DNA of 35,026 bases from a virus (Duplodnaviria > Heunggongvirae > Uroviricota > Caudoviricetes): positions 1 to 35,026 of IMG/VR virus record IMGVR_UViG_2698536657_000017. One strand, written 5' to 3'. Made by a program: the position numbers. Positions 9,001 through 12,000 of this stretch are shown piece by piece. The stretch's first letter is position 1; each line of letters begins with the position of its first letter.

Positions 9001-12000
9001 CCCTGATTACGTTCAGATGGAGATGCCTGCCAGGTACAGCCAGGCAGATTCAGAGTGGATTAAGCGGCAGTTACAGAGCCTGCCTTCCTCACTGAGACAG
9101 AAGGTTGCCCTGAAATACGCGGAGGTTTACGAAGTTACTTTTGATTCCGAGCCTGTTTCATTCCGTAAGGAGAACAGAGCGAGGCATGAAGCCAATGTAC
9201 GGCTGCGCAGGTTCGTTGAAACACACGGGCGTGCATTACAGGGGTATACGACTCAGCCGCCCCTGGCAGGAACGCAACAGCGTACCTGAATGGTGTTGGT
9301 CTTAAAGGTGACCGACGGGCTGAGACCCCACTTCTCAGGATGCACCTGTGTACTACCAAGCTAGTGCATAAGTTGAGAGGGGGGGTAAGGGGGGGAGTGC
9401 CCGTGTGTTAGTGCGAAGCACTGGAACGGGATCTTCCAACAGACGGGTACAGAGGTTAGGTAGATCTCGATCTAAAGGGGCATCCCTGAAAAAACGGACG
9501 TATCAGCAAACTAGTACATCATGGTTAAAATATGAGAGCTGAACTGAAACAGGTACTAATCAACCTTCTGGAAGAGGAATTCGGACATGGAATGGACAAG
9601 GTCACATTCGACTACGTTCTGCAAAAGAAAATCAAATCTCTGGGCTGTGAGTTGCAACGCTGTTTCACTGTCAGGCTGAAAGGTGATCGCAGGGGATTTA
9701 TCGATCTTCTGGTTATTTCTCCCGATGGTCAGCGTTGCGCAGTTGAGGTGGATAACCGATCGCCCCGTCAGCGTTCACTGATGAAAATTCGAGCGCTTCC
9801 TGAAGGCATTTCGGGATTTGTTTTTCTCCGTGATGGCAAACATCCACAGCGTTATATCGCCGATGGTGTGGATGTCATCCGGGCGACCCGGTTTAAGTAA
9901 TCACTGTATCAGCCCTGTCATCGGGAGAATACCATGCTGAATATCAAGCCGAATTTTGCTCAGGAACGTGCGCTGAATATGTTGCGTCATGACTGGAAAA
10001 CATATCAGTCCTTCATGATGTACATGCCTACAGGGAGTGGTAAAACCGGCCTGGCGGCGTTCATCACTGCTGGTCTGGTAAGCCGTGGCATGCGCGTTCT
10101 GTTTGTCGTTCCTTATACCATTTTGATCAACCAGACAGCACAGCGCTTTGTTCAGTACGGGCTTTCCGGGGATGAAATCAGCTTTATCTGGCGTGATCAT
10201 CCCAATAACGACCCGTCACGACTGATTCAGATTGCCAGTGCGGATACGCTGATTCGCCGTGATTTTCCTCAGAATATCGACCTGCTGATTATTGATGAAG
10301 CTCATCTCCGTAAGCGCCGCATCCTCACGGAAATCGAACGACTGGTTGCAGAGGGAAATGTGAAGGTGATTGGGTTGTCCGGTACACCCTTTTCATCGTT
10401 CCTGGGGCGTTATTACCAGCGTCTTCTCAAGCCGACCACTATAGGGGAACTGATCCAGCGTGGCGAACTGAGCAATTACGAATTTTATGCGCCCACGAAA
10501 CCGGATCTGGAAGGTGTAAAAACGAAAGTCTCAATGGAGTACGGCAGGGATTACGACGAATCACAACTGGCAGAGATTATGTGCGGCGCGGATCTGGTTG
10601 GCGATATTGTCGATAACTGGCTGTGTAACGGAAGGGATTTACCGACAGTGGCGTTCTGCGTCAATAAAACGCATGCCAGCTTCGTGACCATGCAGTTCAA
10701 CAAAGCCGGAATTAACGCAGAGGTGATGGTTGCTGAAACGCCACATGATGAGCGTCAGTTAATGATCAGTCGTTTTGAAACGGGAGCGACGAAAATCATT
10801 GTCAGCGTTGGCGTTCTGGTGGCGGGATTTGACAGTGATGTCCGGTGCATCATTTACGCACGCCCGACAAAATCAGAGATTCGCTGGCTTCAGGCGATTG
10901 GGAGAGGATTGCGTACAGCGCCAGGCAAGGAGTCATGCCTGATTTTCGACCATTCCGGTACGGTTCATCGCCTGGGATTTCCTGAAAATATTGAGTATGA
11001 CGAACTGCCCGGCAAAAACGACGGGATGCAGGTGTCATCATCACGTGGTAACGAAATTCGGGAAGAAAAACTGCCGAAAGAATGTCCGGGGTGTCATTTC
11101 ATGAAACCGGCAGGTGTTTATGTCTGTCCGAAATGCGGATTTAAACCGCTGGCTGGTGAGGATGTGAACACAGATACCCGCCGCAATATCAGGAAACTCA
11201 GCAAGGACGAAAAAATTTACACCAAAAGCGACAAACAGGCCTGGTGGAGTCAGATCAAATTCTATCAGCGTCAGCGTGCCTCTCTGGGGCGACCGGTCAG
11301 CGATGGATGGTGCGCTCACACTTTCCGGGAGAAGTTCGGCGAATGGCCTGACGGGCTGAGCAGTTTTCCGATGGAAATCACCCCGGAGGTCAGTAATTAC
11401 ATCAGACACAAATTCATCCGGTTTGCCAGAGGGCGTAGCCGGGCAGAGAAGATGACGGAAAAATCCCCCGAAGCGCTTTCTCTGTCCCTGCTTCATGGTG
11501 TCCGGTCTGGGGTGCCGGAAGGCAGTGAGTCGTGGCAGATCATGCAGGCAAAGCAACAACTTCAGAAAAACAGAAACAGTCTGAGTCAGTAAGATGAAAA
11601 CAGCAGAAGCAGCGAAAGGCCACTGGCCTGAAATTTTAAAACATTACGGACTGCCGCCAGTCACGGGTAAAAAGCACTTCAAAGGGGAATGTCCGGTTTG
11701 TGGTGCCAGAGGTAAGTTCCGTATTGATGACCGTGATGGCACCGGAACGTGGATCTGTGTTTGTGGTAGCGGTGACGGCATGAAACTGATCGCTCTGACA
11801 CAAAAAAGAGCGTTTCATGAAATTTGCGCTGAAATAGACCGCATCACGGGGAATGAATACCGGAGAGATAAACCGCCTGTGATCTGTACGTCGGAAAGCC
11901 TGAGATCGCGCATTCAGCGTCGATTTTCAGCGCTCACGTCGCTACAGGGAACATCTGGTGCTGAATATCTTCGTTCCCGTGGCATATTCAGTCTTCCGGT

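Follow-up and report, generated by a model that had tools for sequence, protein, structure and literature searches.

A conserved, sense-strand-folded non-coding element with paired G runs in the replication module of Fels-1-type and related prophages

The intercistronic and leader RNAs of phage early operons, such as the RNase III sites of T7 and the N-leader and sib hairpins of lambda, are among the closest described counterparts of the element considered here. It occupies an intergenic gap at positions 9290-9531 of a viral DNA of 35,026 nucleotides (nt), IMG/VR record IMGVR_UViG_2698536657_000017, the whole of which is called the window below. Like those RNAs, the element lies between early cistrons, contains a long near-perfect hairpin (P0) and folds on the sense strand only. 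Unlike them, it is much larger and composite, carries invariant motifs (a pair of G runs, the sequence GGUUAGGU and UUAAAGGU loops) and is tied to one replication module; RNase III-style cleavage is here only proposed. A second set of counterparts comprises the RNA II pre-primer of ColE1, the mitochondrial conserved sequence block II (CSB II) and the R-loop origins of phage T4, with which the element shares a G-run-rich, highly folded transcript or non-template strand located beside replication functions. The G5AG7 tract of CSB II resembles the G7TAAG7 of the element. Unlike these systems, however, the element has no dedicated promoter and no sequence similarity to them, and the phage brings its own primase.

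Other comparisons are more partial. A GCGNAGC mini-hairpin has been reported at the priming sites of phages G4 and St-1, in RSF1010 ssiA and in N4 promoters (PMC13037366). The element resembles the single-strand initiation signals of this group (G4/St-1 oric, RSF1010 ssiA; PMC13037366) in having GCGAAGC or GCGTAGC on a short stem, P2, near a primase gene, but the motif occurs in one element subfamily only and the remainder of the element has no counterpart there. The put RNA of HK022 is defined by two related copies, downstream of pL and pR, each of about 70 nt with two stem-loops, and by an action on the beta-prime zinc-binding domain of RNA polymerase that requires no protein factor (PMC9378689). 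As in the put and lambda nut/N systems, we are dealing with a promoter-distal site of the early right operon, in a lambdoid phage with no recognised N, with conserved-loop hairpins and an adjacent small Arg-rich protein; unlike put and nut, the element is single-copy, spans some 230 nt where about 70 would be expected, lacks a boxA and any similarity to them, and is inherited with replication genes. Lambda boxB has a 5-bp stem and a GNRA-like pentaloop and is present in both early operons, whereas the first hairpin of the element, H1, has a stem of 6-8 bp and an 8-nt loop, and no copy in the left operon. Finally, a lambda-type origin, with iterons and an AT-rich region inside the initiator gene, also lies beside replication genes, under predicted pR transcription and with palindromic repeats; the element differs in being intergenic, with two sites 150 bp apart, a G-rich centre and a run of six A as its only A/T run.

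Conservation, linkage and folding of the element

The window corresponds to an E. coli lambdoid prophage of the Fels-1 type; in a strain carrying Shiga toxin (Stx) 1c, a copy 99.5% identical to it adjoins rcsB. The 242-bp gap extends from the stop codon of a 97-amino-acid (aa) open reading frame (ORF; 8996-9289) to the ATG (9532) of a 122-aa ORF. It is one copy of a conserved element of about 230 nt, also present in Salmonella (Fels-1), Klebsiella, Edwardsiella, Yersinia, Xenorhabdus and other E. coli prophages. Its conservation is decisive and argues that the element is not a product of chance: only 4 of the 83 positions in 9396-9478 differ between the window and phage phi467, whose flanking proteins are only 78% and 66% identical to those of the window. 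An exact search with a core 19-mer matched 42 IMG/VR contigs, and a search with the 15-mer TAGGTTARGTAGATC gave more than 120 loci, of which 87 fit a first G-tract pattern and 93 a slightly broader one; individual relative loci or types are designated below by L numbers (L069, L072, L174, etc.). Use of the 122-aa protein as a query extended the set to Yersinia, Xenorhabdus, Edwardsiella, a Klebsiella-like contig and metagenomes, and all the relatives found in this way carry the element at the equivalent place.

The original prediction, made by reading the sequence, had placed the region upstream of a replication module, and this link holds. Among 80 loci found through the helicase gene, 76 could be assessed and all 76 contain the element, which is thus neither absent nor unconserved in related prophages with the same module. 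The helicase-primase linkage is only half of the picture, the element being bound just as closely to the 97-aa gene that precedes it: in all 93 loci found through the element, this gene lies upstream and the helicase downstream, together with the primase wherever the contig reaches. The 122-aa gene is missing in several subfamilies; in L174 and L104 its place is taken by what looks, on inspection of the sequence by eye, like an HNH-type (NUMOD4-like) endonuclease gene, and the repressor type varies freely among element-bearing loci. Since the linkage is constant while the repressor type and the 122-aa gene vary, the element belongs to the block formed by the 97-aa gene, the helicase and the primase, and not to the immunity region.

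The element has gone largely unannotated. Four deposited phage genomes contain it (phi467, Fels-1, Klebsiella ST16-OXA48phi5.3 and KPP5665-2); three of them carry no annotation there, and in KPP5665-2 it lies under a 'helicase protein' feature. Literature searches on the module, on the sequences themselves and on the Fels-1 locus tags returned no published description. No Rfam 15 family was found in the gap at the gathering score or at E values up to 10, and no Rfam match in 9150-9650 is better than E = 2, the two weak ones both lying on neighbouring coding sequences (CDS). In the window, motif search, blastn and a covariance model revealed no second copy on either strand, and there is no repeat of the motifs GGGGGTAAGGGGG and AGGTTAGGTAGATCT or of the 20-mers located at 9349-9368 and at 9499-9518. 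We thus regard it as a widespread, undescribed composite non-coding element on a little-studied phage replication module.

The element folds strand-specifically, on the sense strand only (the plus strand, to which all the features of the gap given here refer), and its helices covary. This conclusion follows from the distribution of G·U and A·C pairs in H1, from the strand asymmetry of P0 and from compensatory changes in a three-way junction. H1 (9294-9317) begins right after the stop codon of the 97-aa ORF. In the window it has an 8-bp stem, including two G·U pairs, and an 8-nt loop, UUAAAGGU (9302-9309), which is invariant across relatives as UUAAAGG(U/C); relatives carry one to three tandem copies of the hairpin. 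In 34 distinct versions, stem positions 1-6 amount to 166 Watson-Crick pairs, 29 G·U pairs and a single A·C, and every stem position covaries. P0 (9325-9386) is a stem of 20-25 bp in which UUGAGAGG and the first G run form the partner strand of CCCC (9326-9329) and CUUCUCAG, so that a pyrimidine-rich 5' arm (CCCC, CUUCUC) faces a 3' arm made of GAGAG and that run; its apex is the quasi-palindrome TGTAC-N9-AGTGCA (9349-9368). When the two strands of P0 are compared in 74 distinct variants, folding is better on the sense strand in 67 of them (mean -23.2 for the sense strand vs -16.9 kcal/mol for the complement), and the arms, although wholly different from one subfamily to another, remain paired (CUCAUUG/CAAUGAG, CUCGUUU/AAACGAG, CCAUG/CAUGG).

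The three-way junction (9397-9450) consists of P1 (9397-9404/9443-9450), P1b (9406-9409/9438-9441), P2 (9410-9422), which holds GCGAAGC at 9413-9419, and P3 (9423-9437). When 15 sequences are aligned, 96.5% of the cells are paired, compared to 33-50% with slid partners, and four pairs have changed on both sides, a number reached by none of 500 shuffles. Compensation is also seen in Yersinia, where GUGCCCG/CGGGUAC is swapped for GGAGUUG/CAACUCC, and in L174, where AGUGC/GCACU of P2 has become AGCGC/GCGCU. A covariance model of the junction has one match in the window (E = 5e-29) and matches at the equivalent position in other subfamilies. Yersinia, Edwardsiella and L174 have other P1 sequences or registers, some subfamilies have no P1, and the duplex energy of cognate P1 strands is barely better than that of non-cognate ones (-7.3 vs -6.1). 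P1 was therefore dropped as a universal helix, and this structure is claimed for the three-way-junction subfamily only. The gap as a whole folds better than shuffled sequences (z = -2.96).

Two observations concern the surroundings of the junction. The end of the 97-aa ORF (9220-9230) and the 5' strand of P1 (9399-9409) form a perfect inverted repeat of 11 nt, AACACACGGGC/GCCCGTGTGTT; it is present in the clade of the window only and was set aside as a part of the element. At L022:6417-6488, on an IMG/VR contig, the element is truncated directly after P2, between …GCACTGGAA and GCCGC…, and fused to unrelated sequence; this break is a recombination or deletion junction within the core.

The two G7 tracts that had first drawn attention to the region lie, as inspection of the sequence confirms, at 9379-9385 and 9389-9395, separated by TAA (9386-9388); the pair (9379-9395) is on the sense, i.e., non-template, strand. 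They were considered unusual. Their adjacency, 3 nt apart, is indeed so; their number is not, since a model of independent, identically distributed bases expects about 2.4 G7 runs per window. They are nevertheless the sole G or C runs of at least seven in the 35-kb window. Yersinia, Xenorhabdus, Edwardsiella and many uncultivated relatives also have a G-run pair, and exact G7 turns out to be a trait of this clade: the commonest forms among distinct variants are G6-TAA-G6, G5-TAA-G5 and GGAGGGGAGGGGG/GGGGAGGGGG, with TA, TT, TTT, CAA, AAA and TTA as rarer spacers, and the two runs are mostly equal in length. The variability implied by the suggestion of a slippage-prone tract is borne out. Among copies at least 96% identical to the window, drawn from IMG/VR, metagenomes and complete E. 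coli genomes, run lengths range from 6 to 10 (6/7, 7/7, 7/8, 8/7, 8/8 and 7/10); these differences fit slippage, and some may be homopolymer sequencing errors. Judged by pattern, a canonical G-quadruplex motif (G3+N1-7 four times) is present in the window and in the L072 and L108 types, and not strictly in the GGAGGGGAGGGGGAGG type. The sole other such motif of the window, GGGGGCCTAAAGGGGACCAGGGGGATATGGGG, is at 34026-34057 (+). Within the G-run region, UAAGGGGG is complementary, by eye and allowing one G·U, to the anti-Shine-Dalgarno tail of 16S rRNA. The non-template strand has a GC skew of +0.53, and GC content is 0.50-0.62 across 9350-9500.

Downstream of the junction lies a box, GGTTAGGT (9454-9461), followed by GATC at 9463-9466 and 9469-9472; box and G-run pair are the most widely conserved primary-sequence motifs of the element. 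Next come a variable short hairpin and a run of six A (9476-9494, the run at 9489-9494). Two related sites flank the core: site A, TGTACTACCAAGCTAGTGCA (9349-9368), is a GTAC-N10-GTRC quasi-palindrome, and site B, CGTATCAGCAAACTAGTACA (9499-9518), a second copy of this subfamily-specific motif, is found 150 bp after A, just before the next ribosome-binding site. At these two places, about 150 bp apart, every subfamily carries a motif of its own, in direct or inverted orientation (GTAC-N10-GTAC, GTCTAAAT, AGACGTC, AACCATT or GAAATAATT). Sites A and B share a complement of at least 7 nt in 12 of 16 cognate pairs, while 35% of the non-cognate ones reach this length; the difference does no more than suggest long-range pairing. 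The short repeats pointed out in the original prediction are all there, namely the CTAGT(G/A)CAT copies CTAGTGCAT (9361-9369) and CTAGTACAT (9511-9519), GATCT at 9430, 9463 and 9469, and a GTGC-GAA-GCAC hairpin (9411-9421); what it called short repeats are arms of strand-specific hairpins.

Leader RNA, origin and other readings

Transcription should pass through the gap in the sense direction and include it in the early rightward mRNA, because pR-like hexamers, a candidate promoter, are present upstream at 8711-8739 and scanning found no terminator-like site between them and the gap. A promoter and terminator scan detected no sigma-70-like promoter or intrinsic terminator inside the gap itself, and such a role is disfavoured. 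Our tentative first choice, held with less than even confidence, is that the element acts in cis, as the structured leader RNA of the replication operon. It is ranked first because hairpins spanning about 230 nt, frequent G·U pairs and a start right at a stop codon are typical of RNA, and because neither an AT-rich region nor an iteron array is present: the element is a folded sense-strand sequence of about 230 nt and not a classical origin made of iterons and an AT-rich region. We infer that RNA, and not displaced single-stranded DNA, is the strand that folds, and likewise that a protein binds it, that it is processed and that it acts on gene expression.

According to this model, the gap would be transcribed from the candidate pR, and the RNA would comprise, in order, H1 with its invariant loop, P0 ending in the first G run, the second G run, the three-way junction, the GGUUAGGU...GAUC box and a second quasi-palindromic hairpin. 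The folded leader would set the amount of helicase and primase produced. A protein may bind the invariant loops and the box, the candidate being the constantly adjacent 97-aa protein, through its Arg-rich helix. The long stem of P0 might also be cut in the manner of RNase III. The G runs would act as helix strands, a homopolymer register tolerating slippage, and might also provide a purine tract resembling a strong Shine-Dalgarno site.

Several observations weigh against the leader RNA. Folding of the sense strand is also expected of the non-template DNA displaced in an R-loop, and G-rich composition alone favours G·U pairing on that strand. The element is kept whether the next gene encodes the 122-aa nuclease, an HNH endonuclease or the helicase, which does not suit a control aimed at any single ribosome-binding site. 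In the most distant versions (Xenorhabdus, L069), the G-run pair and the box remain and folding is no better than that of shuffled sequences; it is thus primary sequence that is under the deepest constraint. Only adjacency connects the 97-aa protein with the element, and the structure model of this protein is poor.

A transcription-activated origin comes as a close second, though taken by itself it is doubtful. Here, the element would be the origin or primosome-entry site of a helicase-primase replicon, activated by pR transcription through the G-rich non-template strand: an R-loop would form, possibly with a G-quadruplex, and the displaced, folded sense strand would serve as the loading or priming signal for the SF2 helicase and the toprim primase, the GATC sites adding Dam or SeqA control. 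This agrees well with the co-occurrence of element, helicase and primase, which is complete both ways whatever the next gene or the immunity type, and with the G-run pair and the GC skew; G runs on the non-template strand of a structured, predicted-transcribed region are indeed a trait of R-loop origins, which are also characterised by a persistent RNA-DNA hybrid and a DNA start site. In addition, the G-run pair, GGTTAGGT and a nearby GATC persist even in the versions that have lost the fold, and the subfamily-specific motifs flank the core much as initiator sites would, but their type tracks no candidate binding protein (97-aa protein, helicase, primase or cI). P2 matches the GCGNAGC mini-hairpin DNA motif, with GCGAAGC in the window and GCGTAGC in L059 and L071. 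GCGNAGC or GCGNNAGC is found in the window (9413-9419) and in E. coli, Yersinia, Edwardsiella and L174 types, and is missing from the L072, L108, L075, L094 and Xenorhabdus types; the restriction of the GCGNAGC hairpin to one subfamily of the element weighs against the origin. The literature on non-lambdoid Stx-phage replication units gave no mapped origin for this module, a point in favour of the origin. On the other hand, there is no iteron array and no AT-rich unwinding region, the GC content of the core being 50-62%, the folding spans about 230 nt, including H1 directly after a stop codon, which is more RNA-like, and a search of 72,556 plasmids returned a single match, on a 438-kb replicon.

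The more specific proposal of an origin type new to lambdoid phages is rather unlikely. It would involve an R-loop at the G-run pair, as in ColE1 or CSB II, with a possible G-quadruplex, the displaced strand offering entry to a PriA- or XPB-like SF2 helicase and a P4-type primase, and slippage tuning the firing. Since the sense strand is both the mRNA and the non-template DNA strand, computation cannot choose between RNA and origin. Of the three options that the original prediction had left unranked (origin, regulatory element, slippage-prone tract), what stands is that the element is functional, linked to the module and prone to slippage.

Processive antitermination appears improbable. In this scheme, H1 would be a boxB-like site for the Arg-rich 97-aa protein acting as an N-like factor, or the RNA would act alone, as put does in HK022, to allow read-through to Q. 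The position is right, since the element follows the cro analogue in the early right operon and precedes some 4 kb of genes, the last of which is Q, but the downstream terminator-like sites are not in excess (7, against 4.1±1.8 expected). Fels-1 and its relatives have no annotated N gene, and the small, basic 97-aa protein has an invariant Arg-rich helix and gives a poorly ordered model; however, the element moves with the replication genes and not with the immunity region. H1 is short, with an invariant loop and one to three copies, but this loop of 8 nt is not a GNRA-like pentaloop, and a boxA (CGCUCUUA-like) upstream of the hairpin is not conserved, the CGCUCCUGA of some relatives being the end of the 97-aa ORF, where the window has AGCGUACCUGA. 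The leftward operon and the rest of the window contain no second copy (motif search, blastn, covariance model), and the element has no similarity to the early region of HK022 (HK022 20000-34000).

Two further explanations are very improbable. In the first, the gap is a double-stranded DNA control region in which the two GTAC-N10-GTAC palindromes are operators for a dimeric regulator and the G tract is a spacer. The two 20-bp quasi-palindromes are similar, unique in the window and 150 bp apart, and each subfamily has its own motif at both positions. A double-stranded palindrome should, however, lack the strand bias seen in P0 (67/74) and H1 (29 G·U vs 1 A·C); moreover, the gap has no promoter-like site to regulate, the motifs are unlike the probable cI/Cro operators TCGAAA-N6-TTTCGA (8673-8760), and their type tracks no neighbouring protein. 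The second, just as improbable, is a contingency (phase-variation) switch, in which slippage of the G runs alters spacing or register and toggles expression of the replication genes. Runs of 6-10 do differ among copies at least 96% identical, complete genomes included, but part of these differences may be sequencing errors in homopolymers, most subfamilies have shorter, stable runs (G4-G6) or GGAGGGGAGGGGG, devoid of a long homopolymer, and the runs are not within a conserved ORF or a recognisable promoter spacer.

Least probable of all, a small protein gene (ORF 9405-9542 and relatives, in the ...HRLGRS... frame, translated from the strong Shine-Dalgarno-like G tract) was rejected: although ORFs of 22-45 codons start 1-12 nt after the second G run and, in many subfamilies, extend across the box, that frame has no start codon in 25 of 83 distinct variants, whole subfamilies among them, length (22 to 45 or more codons) and C-terminus are unconserved, the conserved CCUUUUCC falls in different frames in different subfamilies, compensatory changes keep pairing with sequence upstream of the proposed start, and G-rich sequence is stop-poor by composition.

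Neighbouring genes and significance of the module

The genes around the element are, in order, a LexA/S24-type repressor (7997-8704, minus strand), a cro analogue, the 97-aa gene, the gap, the 122-aa gene, the helicase, the primase, a 288-aa protein, a probable Q, so labelled by position alone, matching Q in relatives, and hok/sok. The 97-aa gene (8996-9289, +; phrog_852, no known function) is the constant upstream neighbour of the element. Its product is predicted to form three helices, at low confidence (predicted local distance difference test score, pLDDT, 60); the invariant residues cluster in the Arg-rich helix, residues 56-77, and the family profile has no match among PDB sequences. The 122-aa gene (9532-9900, +; phrog_1347) is an optional passenger between element and helicase. 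Its product, PD-(D/E)XK nuclease-like with a Bax1-like fold, gives a confident model of that nuclease fold (pLDDT 87.5), the best solved matches of which are Bax1, then McrC and EndoMS. Bax1 is the nuclease partner of the archaeal SF2 helicase XPB; in the window the predicted Bax1-like fold is encoded beside an SF2 (RadD/XPB-like) helicase.

This helicase (9934-11592, +; ResIII/DEAD and Helicase_C) is constantly downstream of the element. It is nearest to RadD, yet scores under the cut-off of that family. Its residues ~500-552 (window ~11430-11589) are hypervariable between subfamilies, the remainder being uniformly conserved; no correlation was found between these C-terminal ~50 residues and the type of flanking motif. 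The primase (11594-12562, +) has a Zn ribbon, DUF7146 and Toprim_3. In L072, L090, L106, L111 and L140, relatives devoid of the 122-aa gene, the box is followed at about 70-250 nt by another conserved leader, GGTTCTTCCTGGAAGAGTGA…; some of these relatives also carry a short upstream ORF (about 19 codons), the end of which runs into the start codon of the helicase.

Other features of the window were noted. Two terminator-like hairpins with T-rich tails lie within the 122-aa CDS, at 9690-9711 and 9798-9816 (+). Repeats of the TCGAAA-N6-TTTCGA type in the repressor-cro intergenic region (8673-8690, 8743-8760 and 8685-8730) are probably immunity (cI/Cro) operators, unrelated to the GTAC motifs of the element. 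A match to the Rfam sok antitoxin RNA (13960-14134, +; 108 bits) places a hok/sok-type module directly after the likely Q, with a promoter-like site nearby at 13926-13953. Downstream of Q/hok are two tandem copies of the Rfam small RNA STnc100, at 18465-18670 and 18732-18945 (+; 153 and 200 bits). The nearest complete-genome relative (L003, NZ_CP027323, 19099-23968) has hsdM and hsdS (type I restriction-modification) and stx1c AB after Q/hok, and its 288-aa gene is broken by an IS3 element.

Prophages of E. coli, Salmonella, Klebsiella, Citrobacter, Yersinia and Xenorhabdus, Stx1c-converting phages among them, commonly carry the module formed by the 97-aa protein, the SF2 helicase and the toprim primase, and the element is the sole conserved non-coding part of this module. 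With its defined helices, invariant motifs and G runs that vary naturally, the element lends itself to direct testing. A regulatory RNA would represent a new family of large structured RNAs, with a candidate partner protein encoded alongside. If the element is instead a true origin, it would show how a lambdoid phage with no O/P system starts replication, and would explain the rise in Shiga-toxin gene dosage after induction.

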